A DNA stretch of 61,619 nucleotides from a virus. Its lineage: Duplodnaviria > Caudoviricetes. A program made the position numbers and the translations under genes. Each line of letters begins with the position of its first letter. Position 1 is the stretch's first letter. The notes beneath the pieces are model-generated. The model did no database searches. It was not told the origin of the DNA and saw only the letters and a program-made list of their open reading frames with translations. The stretch is taken from positions 1 to 61,619 of the IMG/VR virus record IMGVR_UViG_3300007541_006356, one strand, 5' to 3'. Below, one piece after another: positions 1,967 to 58,925 of the stretch.

Positions 1967-2787
1967 TAATAACGTAGTTGTTGTCGTTCAACTTTATAGG
2001 TGTATTTGTTTTCACCCAATTCGTCAATCACCTTAACACCAAGATTTATCGCGTTTTGAACGTCTTCCAAAATTACGTACTCACGTTTACTATGCCAACC
2101 ATAATAACCCGCAGCGAAGTTAAGACAACTAAAGTCAAACTTCTCCTTCAAAATCATAGTGTCAGTGTAAGGGTGGTGTTTCCATTTATCAATGCCGTGT
2201 TCCAATATCAAATCTTTACACTTATTAATAAATTCACCATTTTCCTCGTAAAGTTTTAACCCCATAAGTGTTTGGCTCATAGTGTCATTTTCTGTTGAGT
2301 CAAATTGTATCGCGTAACCCACGTTTTTAAAGAATTCGGGATTAGCGTTACGACTACCGTGACAACCAGTTTCTTCAGCGACAGGAAAGAAAGCTTTTAT
2401 ATTGTCAAACCTATCTAAAAGTTCCAAACAAATAAATACCCCTGCTTTGTCGTCACCACCTATACCAGTTCTATTTCCATTACTGTCTATCGCGACAAAT
2501 GATAATTTTTCTTCCTTTTTTGTGTTAGGTAACATCATTTCTTCCACAGTATACTCCTCAATGGGGTGTACCGAGTCTAAATGTGCTACGACACATGGAT
2601 AAAATTCACATTCACCTTTAGTGACATAAATTGAACCCAAGTCGTCAAATTCATATTTGTACCCACGTTCGTCAAGTTGATTACAAATGTGTTCTATCAA
2701 CATTTGTTCTTGCCATGTGTACGTGGGTACTGACAATAAATTTTTTAACCTATGATAACTATCAATTTCTAACATATACTTTTTCAT
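1963..2787 (-). CDS. Zinc metallopeptidase, M20/M28/M42-like
   Basis: Metal-ligand motifs VAHLDSVH, GGDDKAGV, AEETGCHGS, QFD and C-terminal YYGWHS. Confidence 0.8.
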   Translation of the reverse strand: MKKYMLEIDSYHRLKNLLSVPTYTWQEQMLIEHICNQLDERGYKYEFDDLGSIYVTKGECEFYPCVVAHLDSVHPIEEYTVEEMMLPNTKKEEKLSFVAIDSNGNRTGIGGDDKAGVFICLELLDRFDNIKAFFPVAEETGCHGSRNANPEFFKNVGYAIQFDSTENDTMSQTLMGLKLYEENGEFINKCKDLILEHGIDKWKHHPYTDTMILKEKFDFSCLNFAAGYYGWHSKREYVILEDVQNAINLGVKVIDELGENKYTYKVERQQLRYY

Positions 2788-2833
2788 TAAGTGGTAAAAT
2801 TACAACTTTTAAACCACATAACCAAATATTTTT

Positions 2834-4855
2834 TTAAGAAATTTTCATCTTTTCGGTTTTTTTATTGTAACTCATAGTATATTCCTGATTTTCTATGACG
2901 GTACCTCTTAGTATCTCTTCTGAAATGAAATCTTCAATTTCAGACTGTATAGATCGTTTCATTGGTCTCGCACCGAATTTATCGTTGTAACCAATTTCTA
3001 CAATGTGAGATGTGATTGAAGGTCCGAATTTGAATAGGTAGTTTTTACTTTTAAGTCTATTTGTTAACAAATCCAATTCAACTTTTACTATTTCTTTTAA
3101 GTCTTCTTCGTTAAGTCGTTTAAAGAAAATTATATCATCCAAACGGTTTATAAATTCTGGGTTAAAGGTGTCTTTTAACGCTTTTGATATCATAGATCTA
3201 GCGTGTTCTTCAGAAGCTTGACTTTTCGCTTTAGTAGAGAATCCAACACCATTTCCAAAGTCTTCTAACTGTCGTACACCAATATTAGATGTCATAATAA
3301 TAAGTGTGTTTTTAAAACTTACTTTTCTTCCCGACGCGTCAGTAATGTACCCATCATCTAAAATCTGTAACATAACATTAAAAATGTCTTTGTGTGCTTT
3401 TTCAATCTCATCGAATAGTACCAAAGAATATGGGTTATTTTTTACTTTCTCTGTAACTTGCCCACCCTCATTATACCCCACGTATCCTGGAGGTGAACCT
3501 ATTAGTCTGGATATTGAATGTTTCTCTTGGTATTCTGACATATCTATACGAATCATAGAATCTTCACTACCAAATACTTCTTTAGATAAACGTTTCGCTA
3601 AATGTGTCTTACCCACCCCAGTTGGACCCAAAAATATAAAAGATCCTATAGGTTTTGATGTGTCACGGATACCTACACTATTACGTCTAATCGCTTTAGA
3701 TATTTTTTCAATCGCTTCACTTTGGCCTATAACCTTTTCCGATAATTTGTTTTCTAGATTGAGGAGTTGTTTCTTTTCGTCTTTATTTAACCTGTTTAGT
3801 GGTATTTTGGTAGACTTAGATACTACGTCATATACATCATCTTCTGACACTTCTGGTCTCTGAATTTCCAAATCTTCTTCCCACTTGTGTTTTAGAGCTT
3901 CCAATCTATTCACTAATTTTCTTTCAGTATCCCTAATTTCTGCCGCTTTTTCATAGTCTTGACTTTCAACTACTCTACGTTTTTCTATTTTAATTTCTGA
4001 AATTTCTTTCTTTAGATCCTCAATAACTTTAGGGTATTTAATTTCCAATTGAACTTTAGCTCCGACTTCATCCATAATATCGATAGCTTTGTCGGGAAAT
4101 TCTCTGTTGGTAATATATCTTTCAGCTAACATTACACACAGATTCAAACTCTCATCAGTGTATTTAACTTTGTGGTGATGTTCGTATTTACCTTTAATGT
4201 TATTTAATATTTGTAGAGTTTGTTCTGGGGTTGTTGGTTCAACAAATACTTTTTGGAATCTTCTGTCTAACGCACCGTCCTTTTCTATTTTCTCTCTATA
4301 CTCATCCAAAGTTGTAGCACCAACACATTGTACCTCACCTCTAGCTAAAGCTGGTTTGAATATGTTAGCGACATCTAAAGAACCACTAGAATTTCCAGTC
4401 CCAACAACAGTATGTATTTCATCAATAAAAACAATTATGTCTTTATTTTCACGTAATTCGTCCAAAATAGCTTTCATCCGTTCCTCAAACTGACCTCTAT
4501 ATTTTGTTCCAGCGACCAAAGATGTTAAATCCAATGAAATGATTCTTTTTTCCAATAAATTTCTTGGACACTCACCTTCATGAATCATCATAGCTAAACC
4601 CTCAACTATCGCGGTTTTACCACAACCTGGTTCACCAATTAATATAGGGTTGTTTTTCTTCCGTCTAGACAAAGTTTGAGCTATCCTTTTTATTTCCTCA
4701 CTTCTACCAATTACAGGATCTAATTCCCCTAAATCAGCTAACAATGTTAAATCCCTCGAAAAGTTATCCAACACTGGAGTTTTACTAACTGGTTTAGTCT
4801 CTCTGTCTCGTTTTCTTTTTGGCCCATTGTCTGGGGTTTCATCAATATTTGACAT
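2834..4855 (-). CDS. clpC: ClpC-like double AAA+ ATPase lacking the N-terminal Clp-repeat domain
   Basis: [22 protein letters not shown], short UVR-type middle domain ([11 protein letters not shown]), [32 protein letters not shown] loop, FGARPMKR. Confidence 0.9.
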
Positions 4856-5061: not shown

Positions 5062-6921
5062 ATGGGAAAAATAATTGGAATTGACCTCGGAACTACAAAT
5101 TCATGTGTAGCGGTAATTGAGGGTAACGAAACTAAAGTTATTGTTAATTCGGAAGGTAAACGAACCACACCGTCAATCGTATCTTATAGGGATGACGAAA
5201 GATTGGTTGGTGATACAGCTAAACGACAAATGGTAGTAAATTCCGAAAATACAGTATATTCAGTTAAAAGATTTATTGGATCTAAATTTAGTGAAATTAA
5301 AAATGAAGCTAAAAAAGTAACTTATACTGTCGTGGAAAACAAAAATGGGACAGTTGGTGTTAAAATTAACGACAGAGTATTTACACCACAAGAAATATCC
5401 GCGACTGTACTTCAAAACATTAAAAAAGCTGCTGAAGATTATTTAGGTCAAGAGGTTACTGGTGCGGTAATTACTGTACCAGCGTATTTCAACGATGAAC
5501 AACGACAAGCTACAAAAGAAGCTGGGGAAATCGCAGGTTTAAAGGTTGAGAGGATTATAAATGAACCTACCGCCGCCGCTTTAGCTTACGGTATGGATAA
5601 AAAAGATACCGATATGAAAATAGTAGTTTACGACTTGGGTGGTGGTACATTTGACGTATCTATACTAGAGTTGGGTGATGGTATTTTTGAAGTATTGTCA
5701 ACAAACGGTGACACCCACTTAGGTGGTGATAATTTTGACGAAGTTATTATTGATTGGATTGTTGATAACGCTAAAAAAGATATTGGAATTGACATTTCAA
5801 AAGATACTCAAGCTATGCAAAGAGTGAGAGAAGCAGCTGAAAAAGCTAAATGTGAATTGTCATCGTCACAACAAACAGACATTAATTTACCATACATTAC
5901 GATGACTGATTCAGGTCCTCAACACATTGTCACTAAATTAACGAGAAGTGAATTTGATAAATTAACTTCAGACTTGATTGACAGAACTTTAGAACCTTGT
6001 AGAAAAGCGATTAAAGACGCTGGAATTAAAAAAGAAGAAATTGATGAGGTTATTTTGGTTGGTGGATCTACACGTATTCCAGCGGTACAAAGAGCGGTTG
6101 AGGAATTTTTCGGTAAAAAACCATCCAAAGGTGTGAATCCAGATGAAGTAGTAGCGTTGGGTGCTGCGATACAAGGTGGTGTTATCGCTGGTGATGTGAC
6201 TGATGTTCTATTATTGGATGTTACCCCACTATCTTTGGGTATCGAGACTATGGGTGGTGTCATGACCCGTCTAATCGATTCAAACACGACAATACCAGTA
6301 TCTAAAAGTCAGGTATTCTCAACCGCGATGGATAACCAACCAGCGGTAGACATCCACGTATTACAGGGTGAAAGACCGATGGCGACGGATAACAGAACTT
6401 TGGGTAGATTTCAATTGACTGATTTACCACCAGCACCTAGAGGTGTACCCCAAATCGAAGTTACATTCGATATTGATGTTAATGGTATCATTAGTGTTTC
6501 AGCTAAAGACAAGGGTACTGGTAAAATTCAAAATATAAAAATAGAATCTGGTAGTTCTTTAAGTGAAGAAGAAATTAAAAGAATGAAAGATGAAGCTGAA
6601 AAATACGCGACCGAAGATAACAAACGAAAAGAAAAGGTTGAAAAATTAAATTCAGCTAACAGTTTAGTTTTCCAAACTGAAAAACAAATTAACGAGTTAT
6701 CAGATAAATTAGAAGATACCGATAAAAGTAGACTTGAAAATTGTCTAACAGAGTTAAAAGAAGTCATCCAAAATGAAGATTTGGAGGGTGTTGACGATTT
6801 AACTAATAAGTTAGAAAAGATTTGGGTTGAGGTGTCGACTAAGTTGTACGAAAATAACACGAATGTAGATGAGGGCGAAGCCTCACGAGACGCGGAGGAC
6901 GTAAAGTTCGAAGAAGTGTAA
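5062..6921 (+). CDS. dnaK: Hsp70 chaperone DnaK
   Basis: [67 protein letters not shown]-terminal EDVKFEEV. Confidence 0.98.
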
Positions 6922-8440: not shown

Positions 8441-9661
8441 ATGTCAGATTTAAGACCAATTGGTTCAGAAAAACTTCAAGGTGAAGCTAAATTAAAAAGA
8501 ATTATGGAAATAGCTACCTATGGGGATGTGAAAAAAAATACGGAGTACCATACCCAAACAAATTCTTTCATAAAAGAAGCAGCTAATGGTGTTACTTACG
8601 CTATAGTCAAAGAAAAAGATGGATACTATGTTAAGTCTGGTATCAATGAGAGTTCTTTAGATTATGTCGATGGTTTACATAACAAAAACAAAAATAGGTT
8701 CAAAAGTTATTCTTCTGCTATGAGAAGACTAAATCTCATATTGAAACCAATAAATGAACAGTATAATAATGGTTTTGCTGACCCTTTATTTGAACAAGAA
8801 GAGACAGATGATGAAAAATTTGTTTTAAAAGTAGACGACGCGGAAGGTGGTGATGAAGAAATGGATCTAGATATGGATATGGACTTAGGTGGTGATGAAG
8901 AAATGGATCTAGATATGGATATGGACTTAGGTGGTGATGAAGAAATAGACTTAGGTACAGATACTGACTTAGGTGACGAATCAGACGCTGACGAGGGTAG
9001 ACCAACAATGAGATCTATACAAAAACTTACTGGTAAACTGGGTCAAAGATTAAGAGCTTTAGAAGATGATATGAAATCTGAAGATATTAAGTATGTTTTA
9101 AATTCAATAATATCAGCTGTCAATTTAGATAACCTTGACGAAGAAGACTTGGATGATGTTCTTTCTAGATTAGAACCAGAAGATGATTATGGTTTTGAGG
9201 ACACTTTCTCAGATGAAGAAGAATCTGACATGGGTGGTGAAGAAGAAGCTTTAGATATGGATTTCGGTGGTGAAGAAGAAGCTTTAGATATGGATTTCGG
9301 TGATGAAGAAGAAGCTTTAGATATGGATTTCGGTGATGAGGAAAGTGTGGACGAATTGTCAGAATCAATCAACCAAAAAGTGGAAAAAACATTAAAAAAA
9401 TACTTTAAGGAAAGTAACCACGAAAAAACAATTAACGAATCAAAAGCTAAAGAATACTTAAAAGAAACTAAAGAACTAAATAAAAAATTCACACAAATAA
9501 AAAAGTACTCAAACACTAATAAACAAAAATTTGTAGCTGAAAATTTAGTTAGAAAAAATAAGTCTTTAAATTTGATTGGTACAACTAAAAATGGTACTTT
9601 AGTGTTTGAAAACACTAATATTAAAGTTGGTGTGGACACAAAAGGTAACATTAAAAAATAA
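8441..9661 (+). CDS. Acidic low-complexity protein (putative head core/scaffold-like)
   Basis: 406 aa with D/E/M-rich tandem repeats and several L/I-x-E sites; lies in the operon leading to the terminase. Confidence 0.7.
   Translation: MSDLRPIGSEKLQGEAKLKRIMEIATYGDVKKNTEYHTQTNSFIKEAANGVTYAIVKEKDGYYVKSGINESSLDYVDGLHNKNKNRFKSYSSAMRRLNLILKPINEQYNNGFADPLFEQEETDDEKFVLKVDDAEGGDEEMDLDMDMDLGGDEEMDLDMDMDLGGDEEIDLGTDTDLGDESDADEGRPTMRSIQKLTGKLGQRLRALEDDMKSEDIKYVLNSIISAVNLDNLDEEDLDDVLSRLEPEDDYGFEDTFSDEEESDMGGEEEALDMDFGGEEEALDMDFGDEEEALDMDFGDEESVDELSESINQKVEKTLKKYFKESNHEKTINESKAKEYLKETKELNKKFTQIKKYSNTNKQKFVAENLVRKNKSLNLIGTTKNGTLVFENTNIKVGVDTKGNIKK
8846..8971 (+). repeat. 42-bp coding tandem repeat (GGDEEMDLDMDMDL x2 plus a diverged third copy)
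   Basis: GGTGGTGATGAAGAAATGGATCTAGATATGGATATGGACTTA at 8846 and 8888; diverged copy at 8930. Confidence 0.9.
9233..9343 (+). repeat. 33-bp coding tandem repeat (G[G/D]EEEALDMDF x3 plus partial)
   Basis: GGTG[G/A]TGAAGAAGAAGCTTTAGATATGGATTTC at 9233, 9266 and 9299. Confidence 0.9.
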
Positions 9662-52490: not shown

Positions 52491-52544
52491 AATTATCTCT
52501 TTATAAATAAATATCTATAAGTGTGGTAACGATATTTATATTTG

Positions 52545-54764
52545 ATGGGAACACAAAATTTAAACAATTATTATTTTAATCGATTGGACGTTAAGTTAAA
52601 TTACAGTTCTTATTATGATTTTTTTTTATCTTCGGATGAAAAAGATTTTAATAGAGAAGTTGTATATTCAAATAATTTAATAGGTTACGACAATGGTAAT
52701 GTTTTACCAGTACTTATAGACTTATCCCAAAGTGGTTGTTCAACACAACCAACAATATCCTGTGACGTACAAAGTGGTACACCACAAGTAATATTGAGTA
52801 AAAATTATTGGTCAGAATCTACATCCACATGTGATTGTCCATATACAGGCACATCATCAAATAATTCAGCATACACAATTTACAACATAAATTTAACTGG
52901 AATTGATAATGGTTTGTTTACTGGAATGACTTCGGGTGAAACTATAGAATTACACAGTACTATACCTATAGGTGATACTTTTTCACCAACAAAATACGAC
53001 AAAAGATTAAAGTTACATCAAGTTACCGCTTCAACATATAGTCCAAACAATATATCGTATTCTATTAGTTCAACAACTGATAGTTCTGGTTATTACCAAG
53101 AATTGAACGGTGGTTTTTATCAAGGTTTTTATAAACTTTATGGTTACCCTTATGAAATTTTACCCGATAGACCAACTTGTGGGTGGACAATGGAAACGTT
53201 GTTGAAGATACGTACAAGTGGTAATACGTCTGGTAATTGTTTTACAACCCTCGAAAACAATTGTGAATCTACACAAACACTGAATGACGTGTACCCAAAC
53301 AACTCTGGATTTTTTTATTATGTGGGTACGAGAGCTGAAAATAAGTTTTGGGCAGCTTTTAGTTCAGAAACAGGTTGTACAAGTTTTAGTGGTTATTGTT
53401 CGGAAACTGGTAATTCGGGTGACAGTTGTACGATAAATGTCAGTAGTGGTGTTACTGGTTATTCTAACACATACGAGTTAGATTGTTGTAACAACCCAAT
53501 CGAATCACACCCTTTAGGTCCTGTTAGTTTAAATATTAACACCGGTACAACACCTTGTGGTCAATCATATTCACCATTTACGTTACCAGTATCAGCTATA
53601 ACTGACACGTACTCTAATTCTTTTGGTGTTAGGTTAACACCCGACTTTAGGTTAGGGTATAGAACTTTAAGGTTTACTGGTTCTTGTGTAACCACTGGTA
53701 CTTCAATTGATTGTAATACTGGTGGAACATTTAACTGTGGTTACGCTATCGAAGAATATTATACCGATGTTATTTGTCCGTCTATAATCAACTCTGGTAC
53801 CTGTGAAAATACTTGGTTATCCGTGTCGGTGACATTTGAAAGGGATTTCTGTTTAAGTGGATGTAACGTACAAAACGAAGGTGGGTTGTATGATTTATTG
53901 AAAGTTCCCACAGTGTACAGATACCAAAGATACGCTTCTGATGATATCGTGAGGTGTAAAAACACATACCCATTAATACCAGAAGATGGTTATTATGATT
54001 TAGAGTGCAGTGGTTCTTCCAATGGTAACATATCTATGACTTCAAACACCACCTACGGTAAATGGTTAAATCAAAAATACCTAAGACAAGGTACATTAAC
54101 ATTCTACGTAAATGGTAGGCGTGTAGGTAAAGTGGAAAACTTTGAGGAAATTATTCCCAGACCTCTAAATACTCACAGAGATTTACAGGTGGGTGTACCT
54201 TACAACATTTCTTGGGGTGGTGGTTCTCAAGGGTTATATGAAAATATGACATATGGTACTAGTGGTTGTTCCCAAAACCCACCTTACCAACAAGATCCAA
54301 ATGATTTGGGTTTATTAATACAAGAAAATTTTGCGGGTTCTTGGTTGGGTGGTATATCCCAATTTAGATATTATATAAAACCATTACAATCGGATGAAAT
54401 TTACCACAATTTTTTAGTGAACAAAGATAGGTACTCGTTAATTGACTGTCAATTCACTAAAAACTGTACATCTAAAGGTTGTAATTCACCACAAACATTA
54501 TACTTAAGAGATGGTGATTCCTTGGATATTAAAATTATTTTTGGAACCAATTCGGATAACGTATACACAAATACTAATGGTAATAATGTGAGGATAAAAT
54601 CGATACAACAAGATAACGTCTCTTCTGTAACCATAAAGAAAAATGATAATGTGGTTAACACACCGTTTAATGTGTATAGTGATGACACGTTAGAGGTAAT
54701 TATTACTAAGATGGATAGTGATTTAAATTCTAATGTAACTTTAATTAGTAATTTAATTAAGTAG
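52545..54764 (+). CDS. Cys/Ser/Thr-rich virion protein with a LamG/concanavalin-like core
   Basis: GWTMETLLK, WLSVSVTF, GTLTFYVNG, FAGSWLGGISQFRYYIKPL..DEI..N are LamG-like strands interrupted by Cys-rich inserts. Confidence 0.65.
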   Translation: MGTQNLNNYYFNRLDVKLNYSSYYDFFLSSDEKDFNREVVYSNNLIGYDNGNVLPVLIDLSQSGCSTQPTISCDVQSGTPQVILSKNYWSESTSTCDCPYTGTSSNNSAYTIYNINLTGIDNGLFTGMTSGETIELHSTIPIGDTFSPTKYDKRLKLHQVTASTYSPNNISYSISSTTDSSGYYQELNGGFYQGFYKLYGYPYEILPDRPTCGWTMETLLKIRTSGNTSGNCFTTLENNCESTQTLNDVYPNNSGFFYYVGTRAENKFWAAFSSETGCTSFSGYCSETGNSGDSCTINVSSGVTGYSNTYELDCCNNPIESHPLGPVSLNINTGTTPCGQSYSPFTLPVSAITDTYSNSFGVRLTPDFRLGYRTLRFTGSCVTTGTSIDCNTGGTFNCGYAIEEYYTDVICPSIINSGTCENTWLSVSVTFERDFCLSGCNVQNEGGLYDLLKVPTVYRYQRYASDDIVRCKNTYPLIPEDGYYDLECSGSSNGNISMTSNTTYGKWLNQKYLRQGTLTFYVNGRRVGKVENFEEIIPRPLNTHRDLQVGVPYNISWGGGSQGLYENMTYGTSGCSQNPPYQQDPNDLGLLIQENFAGSWLGGISQFRYYIKPLQSDEIYHNFLVNKDRYSLIDCQFTKNCTSKGCNSPQTLYLRDGDSLDIKIIFGTNSDNVYTNTNGNNVRIKSIQQDNVSSVTIKKNDNVVNTPFNVYSDDTLEVIITKMDSDLNSNVTLISNLIK

Positions 54765-54808
54765 TTTATCTACTTTGGAAATAATTATATAGTAAACACA
54801 AATAAATT

Positions 54809-55165
54809 ATGCCGTCATTCATTCGACTTTTAACAGAAACACCAACAAATATTAATACACCACCATCTGGTTATACTTCATTATACGCTTCGAGTGGAAC
54901 AAGTAATGAAAATCAGTATCAATTATACATTAAAGACCCGTATGGTAATTCTTACCAAGTAGGTGGTTTCGCTAGTGGTGGTACGTTTTCCGCTATGACA
55001 ACATTTAATTCGGGAGCTACTTTTTACAATGGTGTTTATTTGGGTCAACCAGCTAGTGAAGGTACATGGAGAATATCCGCTGACACCACAAATAATAATT
55101 TAGTATTCCAACTATTTACCGGTGGAACTTACGTAACTAAAAATACCATTAGTGGGGTATCGTAA
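54809..55165 (+). CDS. Small Gly/Thr/Ser-rich protein, probably structural
   Basis: 118-aa ORF; TPPSGYTSLYA and GTWRI segments typical of fibre-associated proteins. Confidence 0.65.
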   Translation: MPSFIRLLTETPTNINTPPSGYTSLYASSGTSNENQYQLYIKDPYGNSYQVGGFASGGTFSAMTTFNSGATFYNGVYLGQPASEGTWRISADTTNNNLVFQLFTGGTYVTKNTISGVS

Positions 55166-55170
55166 AAGAT

Positions 55171-55560
55171 ATGGAGTTTTTTATTAGAAAAAATTCATTA
55201 GAACCAATACTTAAAATGCAGTTGGTTCAAGACGGTAGAAATGATTTTAGTTCGTTCTATGACAAATTATCTAATTCTTCCATAAAATTCTCTATGCGTA
55301 ATGAAGAAACTGGTGTTTTTAAAATTTTAAATCAACCCGGTGGTATCGTACAAAAAACAAAAACAAGTGATAATTCACCCACAGAATACTACATCTACTA
55401 TAGATGGAGGAAAAAAGACGTTAACACAGTTGGCAGGTATCAGGGCATGTTTTCTATTTACTTATTTGATGATTGTACTGAGTTAAAGGTTCCAATTAGG
55501 GAGGATTTGTATATTAATATTACTGATTCATTCGGTCAAACTTCTTGTGATTGTGGGTAA
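55171..55560 (+). CDS. BppU-N-like Ig-fold structural protein
   Basis: FFIRKNSLEPILKMQL...IKFSM...IYYRW...DVNTVGRYQGMFSI...VP pattern. Confidence 0.55.
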   Translation: MEFFIRKNSLEPILKMQLVQDGRNDFSSFYDKLSNSSIKFSMRNEETGVFKILNQPGGIVQKTKTSDNSPTEYYIYYRWRKKDVNTVGRYQGMFSIYLFDDCTELKVPIREDLYINITDSFGQTSCDCG

Positions 55561-55561
55561 C

Positions 55562-55969
55562 ATGAAATCATTAATCGAGAAAATATTAAAAGAAGAGGTT
55601 CATGATCTTTTAAAGAAGCATTTATTTAAATTATTAAATGAATGGTTATTGGATGAATGTGATCAAATTACATCTGAAAAATACCCAGATTACATATTTT
55701 TTAAAAGAAGAAGTGATGGAAAAATTGTTGCGGAGATGGATAAAAAATATAAAGATTTTTGGTTACATTATGATGAAATTTGGTCATTTTTTGAAAAGCA
55801 TTTTGACCTAAATTATGAGGAAATACAGGAGATTGCTCGTGACTGGCTGGAAGAGGATTTCAAACTGAAGGGGTATACACCAGCCCCTGACTACGGATCA
55901 GGAGGTTTTAGGTTGGAAGAGACTTTCAAACTGAGGGGATATACACCCCACCTGTGGTGGAAACATTGA
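55562..55969 (+). CDS. Small aromatic-rich hypothetical protein whose C-terminus is encoded by the mini-array
   Basis: ATG at 55562, 1 nt after the previous stop; 135 aa ending WLEEDFKLKGYTP-APDYGSGGFR-LEETFKLRGYTP-HLWWKH*. Confidence 0.8.
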   Translation: MKSLIEKILKEEVHDLLKKHLFKLLNEWLLDECDQITSEKYPDYIFFKRRSDGKIVAEMDKKYKDFWLHYDEIWSFFEKHFDLNYEEIQEIARDWLEEDFKLKGYTPAPDYGSGGFRLEETFKLRGYTPHLWWKH

Positions 55970-56043
55970 CGCATTGTGCTGGAAGATGCTTTCAAACTGA
56001 GGGGATATACGTCAGGGACTATCGGTCAACAAATTTGGTTCAC
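55846..56043 (-). CRISPR. Cas-less CRISPR-like mini-array: 3 x 36-nt repeats, 30-nt spacers, type VI-B-like on the minus strand
   Basis: Plus strand: R1 55846-55881 GCTGGAAGAGGATTTCAAACTGAAGGGGTATACACC; S1 55882-55911 AGCCCCTGACTACGGATCAGGAGGTTTTAG; R2 55912-55947 GTTGGAAGAGACTTTCAAACTGAGGGGATATACACC; S2 55948-55977 CCACCTGTGGTGGAAACATTGACGCATTGT; R3 55978-56013 GCTGGAAGATGCTTTCAAACTGAGGGGATATACGTC; putative S3 56014-56043 AGGGACTATCGGTCAACAAATTTGGTTCAC. Exact 66-nt period; R1 and R3 each differ from R2 at 5 of 36 positions; spacers unrelated to each other. Confidence 0.8.
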
Positions 56044-56129
56044 CACTAAGTGATACTTTAAATATAAAATCCCAAGCTTAATTGATTTTTTAGTTCATTT
56101 GTATTATTTTTTTATAAAAAAATTGACAA

Positions 56130-58925
56130 ATGAATATACCGACACAAGAGCAAATAGAACAGTTTTTACACGGTTCTGACCCAGAAAAATACATAGTGGG
56201 GTTAGAATTCGGTTTTAGAAGTGGCAAAATATATAAAATCAAAGAATACCCAGATAAGGGAAAGGTTATTGAGGTTGATACCTTCACACCTTTTTGTTGG
56301 GTGGGTGATTTACGTTCTAAAAATTTTTACAGAGGAAACAAACAAGTTCAAAAAGAAGCTATCAGTAAACACGGTATCATTATAGAAAAGTTGGAAACTT
56401 ATGGTAATGATCGTTTAGAGAATGGGTTAACATATTTGGTTAAGACGACTAAAGATTATAATCATTTGGTTTCGTTTTTTAGGGAAGGCGGTCTTAATCC
56501 TTGGGGTGAAGATTCTAGAGATTTTATATTAATGTTACCACCGATAGAACAGTACTTAATACAAAAAGAAAAAAGATTATTCAAGGGTTTTGAGGATTAT
56601 AATGACGTACATCGTTTCGTTTTTGACTTGGAAACCACTAGTTTATCACCTAAAGATGGTAGGATATTCATGATTGGCATGAAAGACAATCGTGGGTTTG
56701 AAAAAGTCATTGAAGTTGAGGATAATGATTATAATGAAATATTAGCTATTACCGAATTTTTCGAAACAATAGATAAACTAAAACCGACAATAATTGGTGG
56801 TTACAACTCATCTAACTTCGACTGGGATTGGTTATTTGAACGTTCTCGTATTTTAGGTTTGGATATTTCGGAGTTTAAAACACTAAACCCTAACGAAAAA
56901 TTTAAAATGTCCAAAGGTACACTCAAGTTGGGTGCGGAAATGGAAGAATACAATAAAATTGAAATCTGGGGTTACAACTCTATAGATATCGCACACTCTG
57001 TTAGGAGAGCACAAACAATCAATTCAGACATAAAAAGTTGGGGTCTTAAATATATTACTAAATTCACTAATTCTGAAAAACCTAATCGTGTTTATGTTCA
57101 AGGGGATAAAATCGCTTCAACATATAAAGAAAATTTAGAATATTTTTTTAATCCCAAAACTGGTCAGTATCGTTTAGTTACAGATCCAAAAGTTAAAGAC
57201 ATAGAAACAAAATACCCAGGGGTGTATGAACGTGTCAACGGTAAATACATTGTTGAAAGATATCTATTGGATGATATTTGGGAAACTTTGGAGGTTGATG
57301 CTCAGTTTAACCAAGCGTCATTCCTTTTATCTTCTATGGTACCAACGTCATACGAGAGAGCGTCAACAATGGGTACCGCAACATTGTGGAAGATGTTGAT
57401 GTTAGCTTGGTCATACACTAACAATTTAGCTATACCCAAAAAAGACGAAAAAAGACCTTTTGTGGGTGGACTATCACGCTTGTTAAAAACGGGTTATTCG
57501 ACAAACGTGTTGAAGTTGGACTTTAGTTCACTTTACCCGTCAATACAATTAGTTCATGATGTTTTTCCAGAGTGTGATGTGACTGGTGCGATGAAATCTA
57601 TGTTAAAATATTTTAGAGACACACGTATTAAGTATAAAAATTTAACATCAGAATACAAAAACATAGATAAGAAAGTATCAGAAACTTATGGTAGGAAACA
57701 ACTACCTATTAAAATTTTTATTAACTCCATGTTCGGTTCACTATCCGCACCACAGGTATTTCCGTGGGGTGACATGAACAAAGGTGAAGAAGTTACATGT
57801 ACTGGTAGACAATATCTAAGACATATGATTAGATGGTTTATGGATAGGGGGTATGAACCTTTGGTGTTAGATACTGATGGTGTGAACTTTTCAGCTCCAA
57901 AGGGTGTAGAAAATATAGAATACGTTGGTAAAGGTAATAATGACTTAGTTGTTAAAGACAAGGTTTATGTAGGTACTGACGCACACGTAGCTGAATACAA
58001 TGATTTGTATATGGTAAATGAGATGGGTTTGGATACTGATGGTACTTGGCCAGCTTGTATTAATGTAGCCAGAAAAAACTACGCTCTTTTAACTGATAAA
58101 GGTAAAGTTAAACTAACTGGTAATTCAATCAAATCAAAAAAATTACAAGGATATGTAGAGGAATTTATAGATAAAGGTTTGACAATGTTACTTAACGGTG
58201 AGGGTCAGTCATTTATTGATTACTATTACGAGTACATCGAAAAAATTTACAATAAAGAAATACCATTAAGTAAAATCGCTAACAAATCAAACGTAAAACA
58301 AAGTGTTTCTGATTATAAGATTCGTAGTAAACAAACTTCAAAGTCTGGAAGTTTGATGTCTAAACAAGCTCACATGGAACTAATCATCCAAGAAGGACTT
58401 AAGGTGGATTTGGGTGACACGATTTACTATGTGAATAATGGTACCAGAAAATCACACGGTGACGTTCAAAACGTAAATAAACCAAAAAAGGGGTGGACAC
58501 AAGAACAACTTGATAGTTTCTTTGGGACTTATGGCGTTTACCCACCAGATTCATTAACAACTATGGTGAAACTAAATTGTTACCGTATCCCTAAAGAAGA
58601 TATTGAAAACAACCCTGGACTGACTGGTGACTATAACGTACCTAGATACATCAGTACTTTCAATAAAAGAATTGAACCTTTGTTGGTTTGTTTTAAACCT
58701 GAAATCAGAGACAATATTCTAATAGAAGATCCTAAAGACAGACAATATTTCACTAAATCACAATGTGAGTTAATAAATGGAATACCTAGAAAACCTGAAG
58801 ACCAAGATTCGTTAGGTGAAATATTAGACCTATCAGAAGATGAGGTTAACTTTTGGTCTAATGTAAAACAACAAAATGAAAATTATTTTATGGAAAGTTT
58901 AGGTATTTTTGATACCGTCAGATGA
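56130..58925 (+). CDS. polB: Family B DNA polymerase
   Basis: Exo FDLETT, GGYNSSNFDW, YLLDD; polymerase LDFSSLYPSI, KIFINSMFG, LDTDG, RKNYA. No intein evident. Confidence 0.95.
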   Translation: MNIPTQEQIEQFLHGSDPEKYIVGLEFGFRSGKIYKIKEYPDKGKVIEVDTFTPFCWVGDLRSKNFYRGNKQVQKEAISKHGIIIEKLETYGNDRLENGLTYLVKTTKDYNHLVSFFREGGLNPWGEDSRDFILMLPPIEQYLIQKEKRLFKGFEDYNDVHRFVFDLETTSLSPKDGRIFMIGMKDNRGFEKVIEVEDNDYNEILAITEFFETIDKLKPTIIGGYNSSNFDWDWLFERSRILGLDISEFKTLNPNEKFKMSKGTLKLGAEMEEYNKIEIWGYNSIDIAHSVRRAQTINSDIKSWGLKYITKFTNSEKPNRVYVQGDKIASTYKENLEYFFNPKTGQYRLVTDPKVKDIETKYPGVYERVNGKYIVERYLLDDIWETLEVDAQFNQASFLLSSMVPTSYERASTMGTATLWKMLMLAWSYTNNLAIPKKDEKRPFVGGLSRLLKTGYSTNVLKLDFSSLYPSIQLVHDVFPECDVTGAMKSMLKYFRDTRIKYKNLTSEYKNIDKKVSETYGRKQLPIKIFINSMFGSLSAPQVFPWGDMNKGEEVTCTGRQYLRHMIRWFMDRGYEPLVLDTDGVNFSAPKGVENIEYVGKGNNDLVVKDKVYVGTDAHVAEYNDLYMVNEMGLDTDGTWPACINVARKNYALLTDKGKVKLTGNSIKSKKLQGYVEEFIDKGLTMLLNGEGQSFIDYYYEYIEKIYNKEIPLSKIANKSNVKQSVSDYKIRSKQTSKSGSLMSKQAHMELIIQEGLKVDLGDTIYYVNNGTRKSHGDVQNVNKPKKGWTQEQLDSFFGTYGVYPPDSLTTMVKLNCYRIPKEDIENNPGLTGDYNVPRYISTFNKRIEPLLVCFKPEIRDNILIEDPKDRQYFTKSQCELINGIPRKPEDQDSLGEILDLSEDEVNFWSNVKQQNENYFMESLGIFDTVR

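Follow-up and report, generated by a model that had tools for sequence, protein, structure and literature searches.

A small gene of a T4-like phage holds in its 3′ end a CRISPR-type mini-array with a spacer identical to part of a bacterial tRNA-Arg(ACG) gene

We analysed a stretch of 61,619 nucleotides (hereafter the window), a 61.6-kb fragment of the IMG/VR virus record IMGVR_UViG_3300007541_006356 that derives from a large T4-like phage (Duplodnaviria; Caudoviricetes) and is estimated to be 17% complete. Positions 55846-56013 of the window are a genuine mini-array of the CRISPR type, with three repeats of 36 nucleotides (nt) at 66-nt spacing and two spacers of 30 nt. The array begins within the 3′ end of a small open reading frame (ORF), and its first spacer is a copy of part of a tRNA-Arg(ACG) gene. 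The elements of the locus are as follows.

55562-55969, plus strand: small conserved phage ORF, 135 amino acids (aa) from its ATG (ORF list; 26 homologues)
55846-55881, plus strand: repeat 1 (36 nt), inside the small ORF (repeat search; Hamming scan)
55882-55911, plus strand: spacer 1 (S1, 30 nt), tRNA-sense copy of bases 24-53 of a tRNA-Arg(ACG) gene
55912-55947, plus strand: repeat 2 (36 nt), starting GTTGG
55948-55977, plus strand: spacer 2 (S2, 30 nt), holding the TGA stop codon of the ORF
55978-56013, plus strand: repeat 3 (36 nt), terminal, with a changed 3′ end (ACGTC against ACACC)
56014-56053, plus strand: trailer, which in frame with repeat 3 encodes SGTIGQQIWFTTK and a stop codon (translation; sequence of homologue P0016)

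S1 comprises the anticodon arm, the variable loop and the start of the T stem of tRNA-Arg(ACG). The preliminary description of the locus had parsed 55882-55911 in this way, with the tRNA sense on the plus strand of the window, and its coordinates, parse and strand are all correct. A near-perfect tRNA-Arg(ACG) counterpart of the 30-mer was sought, and S1 proved to be identical (30/30) to positions G419:C111:2200-2229 of a Bacteroidota genome, where ARAGORN calls a 75-nt tRNA-Arg(acg) gene of which the match covers bases 24-53 by linear count. Two further genomes of the same family, G104 and G409, match at 29/30. With up to three mismatches the 30-mer occurs in 10 of 401 sampled Bacteroidota genomes (0 for a reversed-pattern control), the best of them being G104 with one mismatch, and 3 of 41 genomes from the G104 family hold it at two mismatches or fewer. 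This match to a bacterial tRNA-Arg gene is far beyond chance. Among viruses, the central 22 nt of S1 recur exactly in 29 IMG/VR stretches, and in most of these ARAGORN places a tRNA-Arg(acg) over the match on the same strand (no tRNA was called at the match in L008, L009, L018 and L023); the best identity to the full 30-mer in IMG/VR is 28/30.

The window was also searched for a tRNA gene of the phage's own and holds none by ARAGORN or Rfam (0 in each), which makes S1 a fragment of 30 nt rather than a gene. The tRNA match continues for 7 nt into repeat 2 (55912-55918), where GTTGGAA stands against GTTCGAA in the tRNA (one mismatch; 36/37 overall), and we take this extension to be chance or slipped integration. 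A comparison of CGN and AGR codons gave 77% AGR among the Arg codons of the phage and 77% CGT/CGC/CGA in the G419 loci, a usage that would agree with an advantage gained by striking tRNA-Arg(ACG) but is no proof of one. The S1 unit is unchanged in contigs of three freshwater runs, where further spacers are visible.

Related phages carry sister arrays. In the relative L001 the upstream ORF is 75% identical and three repeats occupy the same places, with 30-nt spacers wholly unrelated to those of the window. A metagenome scan yielded 14 further loci, one of which (L047) ends before the array. Together, the window, L001 and these loci provide nine distinct arrays of three or four repeats each; their 22 distinct spacers measure 30 nt in 15 cases and 29 nt in seven. 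The 54 repeat copies comprise 21 distinct sequences with the same base throughout at 18 of 36 positions, and in most of the nine arrays the terminal repeat is degenerate at its 3′ end. The family thus shows constant-length repeats, unique spacers of near-constant length, repeats that are kept while spacers are swapped between relatives, a repeat number that ranges from one to four and a degenerate terminal repeat, all generic features of CRISPR arrays. The non-coding leader of a typical array is replaced by a conserved ORF that is predicted to fold and that takes in repeat 1 and the region upstream of it. The ORF and array also occur as repeated modules: locus L039 holds two in tandem 404 nt apart (2285-3089), and a single 24-kb contig bears the modules of both L038 and L043.

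Protospacers could be assigned to five of the 22 spacers, three of them at 29-30/30, and all five lie in the same Bacteroidota lineage. Besides S1 these are as follows, with orientation given relative to the plus-strand RNA of the array.

sp11 (L039): 30/30 in G104; 23S rRNA gene near position 2400; antisense
sp5: 29/30 in G419; ResIII/DEAD helicase gene, about 150 nt into the gene; antisense
sp7: 25/26 in G419; ribosome-binding site and start codon of an Endonuclease I gene; sense
sp13: 25/30; adjoins the start codon of a gene for an Asp/Glu racemase; antisense

Per-genome E-values for S1, sp11, sp5 and sp7 range from 4e-11 to 5e-5. A single 22-nt match of sp3 (E 0.003, in 1 of 41 genomes) was treated as chance. 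The lineage of G419 and G104 is the probable host, judging from these matches, and fragments of its DNA have evidently been captured into a phage-borne repeat. The share of stable-RNA targets is in part a detection bias, because conserved genes match most easily and the reference genomes are not the exact host.

The occurrence of the S1 core in viruses raises the alternative that S1 is aimed at the tRNA-Arg(ACG) gene of competing, tRNA-carrying phages. In many of the 29 IMG/VR stretches the core lies inside a phage tRNA cluster, and virus-borne mini-arrays directed at related viruses are a known kind, as passages of Al-Shayeb et al. 2020 (PMC7162821) indicate. The bacterial match is the better one, however, at 30/30 against 28/30. 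The four other assigned spacers of the family, moreover, fall in chromosomal genes of that same bacterial lineage, including the 23S rRNA gene, and we know of no phage that carries 23S rRNA. Against the window and the sister loci, no match of any of the 22 spacers exceeds 13 nt; in IMG/VR, which was scanned with S1 and S2, the 20-nt core of S2 has 0 matches. A conflict between phages is on this evidence a highly unlikely purpose for S1.

At every array-holding locus the array starts within the 3′ end of the small ORF. The segment LEEDFKLKGYTP, the last folded part of the window's protein, is encoded by repeat 1, after which the ORF runs through S1 and repeat 2 to its stop in S2. All 26 homologues are conserved up to DWLEETFKLRGYTP, which repeat 1 also encodes, and their tails are variable thereafter: translation of repeat 2 yields LEETFKLRGYTP where the frame is kept, and WKRLSN with a stop codon where a 29-nt spacer has shifted it. 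AlphaFold2 gives a confidence score (predicted local distance difference test, pLDDT) of 83-89 for residues 11-110 that drops under 50 past about residue 113, a model in which the residues encoded by repeat 1 belong to the folded part and the spacer-encoded tail is predicted to be disordered. The homologue P0016 has one repeat followed by SGTIGQQIWFTTK, and in the window repeat 3 leads, in frame, into the identical tail. The trailer at 56014-56053 thus appears to be the remnant of an unexpanded ORF end, and the window array looks like two spacer-repeat units inserted into that end.

The protein evolves rapidly, as is often seen for anti-defence genes. Over window positions 55562-55845 and their counterparts the frame is open in all 10 loci compared, and the changes are mostly non-synonymous, with 4 synonymous and 23 non-synonymous codons between the window and L001. 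It belongs to no Pfam or PHROG family; Foldseek with the model found nothing significant in the PDB (best E 0.03, TM score 0.29), and a search of the ESM Atlas gave no usable match. Its neighbours in BFVD are exclusively uncharacterised proteins of uncultured Caudovirales phages, and their closely numbered accessions suggest a multi-copy paralogue family. Two small features of the 3′ side may be recorded here. S2 begins with a perfect small hairpin, CCACC-TGT-GGTGG (55948-55960), and just 3′ of the trailer, at 56055, contigs of two runs and the locus L046 carry a 24-nt insertion, which is a polymorphism between otherwise identical phages.

An array so embedded in a gene might be no guide at all and instead a protein-coding repeat, or its plus-strand RNA might act as a decoy, offering a host anticodon nuclease a free tRNA-Arg anticodon stem-loop. 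The reading frame does run through repeats 1 and 2, several differences between repeats are synonymous or conservative, and S1 contains a complete 5-bp stem and 7-nt loop. To reach repeat 3, however, translation would have to pass one stop codon in the window and two in L001, 29-nt spacers shift the frame in many relatives to give the WKRLSN tails, and the spacer-encoded residues are predicted to be disordered. The frame shifts and stops rule out the coding-repeat form of this idea. The other 21 spacers, furthermore, are not tRNA-like, and at least four of them are fragments of other host genes, which makes this idea as a whole hardly credible. A relic of a phage attachment (att) site was likewise rejected: the fragment lies between array repeats and four sister spacers are pieces of other host genes.

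The direction of transcription decides what an S1 guide could pair with. Each of the nine distinct arrays shares its strand with the ORF that contains its first repeat at the 3′ end, and the degenerate repeat lies at the array end distal to the ORF. The only recurrent hairpin of the repeat, CUUUCA/UGAGGG, requires G.U pairs and is possible solely in plus-strand RNA; the repeats fold at -2.3 to -4.9 kcal/mol on the plus strand and at -0.5 to -1.5 on the minus strand, although shuffled sequences fold as well. The genes that flank the array, from 52542 to 58925, are all on the plus strand as well. A scan of window positions 55000-56400 found no terminators, and promoter-like sites there are no more frequent than in shuffles; a hairpin after the L044 and L045 arrays was discarded as a cue to orientation, as T runs occur on both strands. 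From this layout the array is probably transcribed from the plus strand. With array and ORF on the same strand and the degenerate repeat distal, such a transcript would carry the tRNA's own sense, and an S1 guide made from it could not pair with the mature tRNA. The preliminary description had proposed a guide antisense to the tRNA, which the common strand of ORF and array in all nine cases does not bear out, and plus-strand-only transcription, under which it had conceded that its antisense guide would fail, appears to be the likelier case.

That antisense proposal was tied to a CRISPR type. The preliminary description had assigned the array to type VI-B, with a CRISPR RNA (crRNA) complementary to mature tRNA-Arg(ACG) and the effector Cas13b cleaving the tRNA or firing collateral RNase activity. 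Passages of Smargon et al. (10.1101/092577) define type VI-B by a 36-nt repeat with a poly-U loop and complementary 5′-GUUG/CAAC-3′ ends and by 30-nt spacers. The phage arrays resemble this in their 36-nt repeats and 29-30-nt spacers, the GYUGG start of the repeat, the small internal hairpin and the Bacteroidota setting. They differ from it at the repeat ends: 19 of the 21 distinct repeats start GCTGG, window repeat 2 being one of the two with GTTGG instead, and most end CACC, so that only three of four end positions could pair. The loop of the sole recurrent hairpin is AAC or AAU in place of poly-U. No Cas13b, Csx27 or Csx28 was seen in the ORFs examined, and the five assigned targets show no clear bias towards the transcribed strand. 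The lengths on which the type assignment drew therefore stand, its ends and loop do not, and we assign the arrays to no CRISPR type.

The exact S1 match to a bacterial tRNA-Arg(ACG), the preference of the phage for AGR and of the bacterium for CGN codons, and the three of five matched spacers (23S, helicase and racemase) that would be antisense to RNA if the plus strand is read all speak for the type VI-B model. Under the same plus-strand transcription, however, S1 and sp7 are in sense. Seven large ORFs of a relative, G440, contain no Cas13b motif of the form R[NHQKD]xxxH, and examination of the large ORFs revealed neither an RxxxxH pair nor a Cas13b-like protein. In three of the 41 genomes of the candidate host family a generic VI-B-like two-repeat pattern occurred, with non-identical repeats, and the control also gave three. 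The anticodon arm of a mature tRNA is, besides, base-paired and modified and makes a poor Cas13 target. A type VI-B array directed against the mature tRNA is thus very improbable.

We propose instead that this is an orphan phage mini-array with a host-derived spacer, whose guides direct a Cas effector at host DNA, and give this reading a probability of roughly 40%. A small, fast-evolving gene of the phage would have received two spacer-repeat units in its 3′ end through an integrase of the Cas1-Cas2 type. S1 would have been captured from the DNA of a tRNA-Arg(ACG) gene in the probable-host Bacteroidota lineage, and the sister arrays would have taken up pieces of the 23S rRNA gene and the 5′ ends of chromosomal genes from the same lineage. 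The array may then be co-transcribed with the ORF from the plus strand, and the partners of a sense S1 guide would be limited to the template strand of the tRNA-gene DNA and an antisense transcript. Loaded into a putative Cas effector, either the host's or one encoded elsewhere in the phage genome, such guides could direct it at the tRNA-Arg and rrn loci and at gene starts of the host chromosome, which would do a lytic phage no harm or even serve it.

A bolder form of this proposal makes the ORF and its 3′ repeat a phage device that recruits both the integrase and the effector of the host and turns the latter against the host translation apparatus. The repeat would fill with fragments of stable-RNA genes (tRNA-Arg(ACG) and 23S rRNA) and with gene starts; a phage that prefers AGR codons would depend much less on a CGN-decoding tRNA; and the protein-coding gene would serve as the "leader" of the array and be duplicated with it as ORF-array modules. 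We consider this extended version rather unlikely.

Several observations weigh against the targeting of host DNA by these guides. PADLOC identified no Cas proteins among the 46 ORFs of the window, only weak helicase matches, and none were found among the eight large ORFs of the 48.7-kb G440 record; these searches cover about 17% of the phage genome together with that record. The 21-nt core of the repeat gave two chance matches in coding DNA, and no array, across the genomes of 185,579 species. A phage-like repeat was found neither in G419, G104 and G409 (with the array as BLAST query and, in G104, a degenerate pattern) nor in the 41 genomes of the candidate host family, and the sole CRISPR locus seen in the host lineage, that of G104, has a repeat unrelated to the phage's. 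With neither a Cas protein nor a matching host repeat at hand, the partner effector is purely putative. The window repeats are only 82-84% alike, so this copy of the array may be decaying, and repeat folding is no better than that of shuffles on either strand.

The spacers themselves add to these points. With three protospacers antisense and two in sense to the plus-strand RNA there is no clear strand bias, and no protospacer-adjacent motif (PAM) is visible in the five sets of flanks, a pattern that fits unselected capture as well as function. For 17 of the 22 spacers (S2, sp2-4, sp6, sp8-10, sp12 and sp14-21) no credible source was found; S2 was searched for in three and then in 41 genomes of the candidate host family. 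Phage GC content is 0.28-0.36 against 0.43-0.56 at the matching bacterial loci. The search for the S1 30-mer among bacteria, finally, covered Bacteroidota, and other phyla could hold it too.

These features lead to a second explanation, in which the phage repeat is a substrate or decoy mimic for the adaptation machinery of the host and the spacers are neutral by-products, functionless for the phage. Transfer RNA and rRNA genes and gene starts would then be mere hot spots of an integrase that works independently of PAM and strand. Passages of a study of type III-A adaptation in S. thermophilus (PMC8860593) describe such behaviour: acquisition was independent of PAM and orientation, rRNA/tRNA clusters and gene starts were sampled most, and at least 30% of new spacers derived from non-coding genes with high expression. 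The five spacers to which a source was assigned here (a tRNA gene, the 23S rRNA gene, the start-codon regions of two genes and a position some 150 nt inside another) resemble that capture in the choice of sites, in occurring in both orientations and in having no PAM. Because the missing PAM, the mixed orientation and the choice of tRNA, rRNA and gene starts match these type III-A hot spots, we rate the by-product explanation as nearly as likely as deliberate DNA-level targeting of the host.

The divergence of the window repeats and the fast evolution of the ORF, as anti-defence genes often show, also fit a by-product. So does the single-repeat state of P0016, which resembles the solitary repeat units described as RNA anti-CRISPRs in PMC10651486. 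Like those and other phage crRNA-like RNAs (10.1101/2024.10.29.618823, in part), the arrays are phage repeats without cas genes; unlike the RNA anti-CRISPRs, which mimic an identified host repeat, they have full-length spacers with perfect host matches and no host repeat to mimic in the genomes searched. The type III-A arrays of PMC8860593 likewise differ, being bacterial arrays with their own Cas1-Cas2 and longer spacers, where those here are phage-borne and 29-30 nt long.

Spacers of that length are short for type III arrays in general. Across the family, moreover, the arrays persist, exchange their spacers and are copied together with the ORF as modules, which suggests more than scars of integration. 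Perfect matches in conserved genes are expected under either explanation and do not discriminate between them. Neo-CRISPR arrays form by off-target integration of spacers, and the present arrays resemble them in that a repeat-like sequence away from the canonical place, in this case within a gene, was the point from which they grew. They differ from neo-CRISPR arrays in being conserved, multi-copy and turned over across a whole phage family.

Phage arrays that lack cas genes and carry spacers against the host chromosome are a known kind, and it is the embedding of the array in an ORF that is unusual. Huge-phage arrays of this kind include some with spacers against transcription and translation genes of the host (Al-Shayeb et al. 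2020, passages of PMC7162821). The arrays described here resemble these in being compact, in having no acquisition or interference genes nearby and in spacers that match the chromosome of the presumed host. They differ from them in that the first repeat lies within a protein-coding gene, in the tandem ORF-array modules, in the tRNA-gene and 23S rDNA targets and in that no host array with the same repeat was found. The preliminary description had known of no phage mini-array aimed at a tRNA anticodon arm; targets in host translation were already in print, and those passages of PMC7162821 mention no target in a tRNA or rRNA gene.

Our literature search, which did not extend to supplementary target tables such as those of PMC7162821 that may list tRNA or rRNA targets, found the repeat core in no paper and no description of a phage array with a tRNA-gene spacer. 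As far as the literature so searched goes, four features are new here: a first array repeat that is part of the coding sequence of a folded protein, the duplication of the array in ORF-array modules, exact tRNA-gene and 23S-gene spacers, and an assignment of the host from the phage side.

If the guides are used, a lytic phage family would be programming a CRISPR effector against the tRNA and rRNA genes of its host, a route to host shutoff distinct from the known phage nucleases. Even if the spacers are by-products, the arrays would record the bacterium that these uncultured T4-like phages infect, a host link made from the phage side, and would provide a natural case of spacer integration into a coding gene, with the same tRNA, rRNA and gene-start hot spots that adaptation shows under laboratory conditions. 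The ORF-array module is, in addition, a candidate for a new anti-defence locus.

The single CRISPR locus of the candidate host lineage (L081, G104:C3, 4642-10131) has a 575-aa ORF that contains Cas1 and is possibly a fusion. A small ORF follows, and then 45 copies of a 36-nt repeat at about 71-nt spacing run up to the end of the contig.

The wider gene content of the window is that of a large T4-like phage, with a Gp23-type capsid protein, a Gp20 portal, a prohead protease and a family B polymerase, the last encoded by the largest ORF (931 aa). This polymerase is only about 25% identical to those of Salinibacter phages, so the phage has no cultured relative, and a blastn search of window positions 55000-57000 against the phages collection gave no match. 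Hsp70- and ClpB-like chaperones and many sugar-modifying enzymes are encoded as well. The chaperones are a ClpB-like double AAA+ protein at 2834-4855 (minus strand) and a full-length Hsp70/DnaK at 5062-6921 (plus strand; Pfam E 5e-258). Three GDP-mannose-dehydratase-like genes, several glycosyltransferases and a Mom-like protein are also present.

In the relative G440 (L082-L084), seven ORFs of 646-1327 aa lie downstream of the array. No family in Pfam, PHROG or PADLOC was found for them; their content of Ser, Thr, Asn and Gly is high, and a structural role is presumed. In the window, the ORF at 8441-9661 contains two in-frame tandem repeats (8845-8975 and 9233-9343, with periods of 42 and 33 nt and 91-97% matches) that encode acidic units rich in Gly, Asp, Glu and Met.

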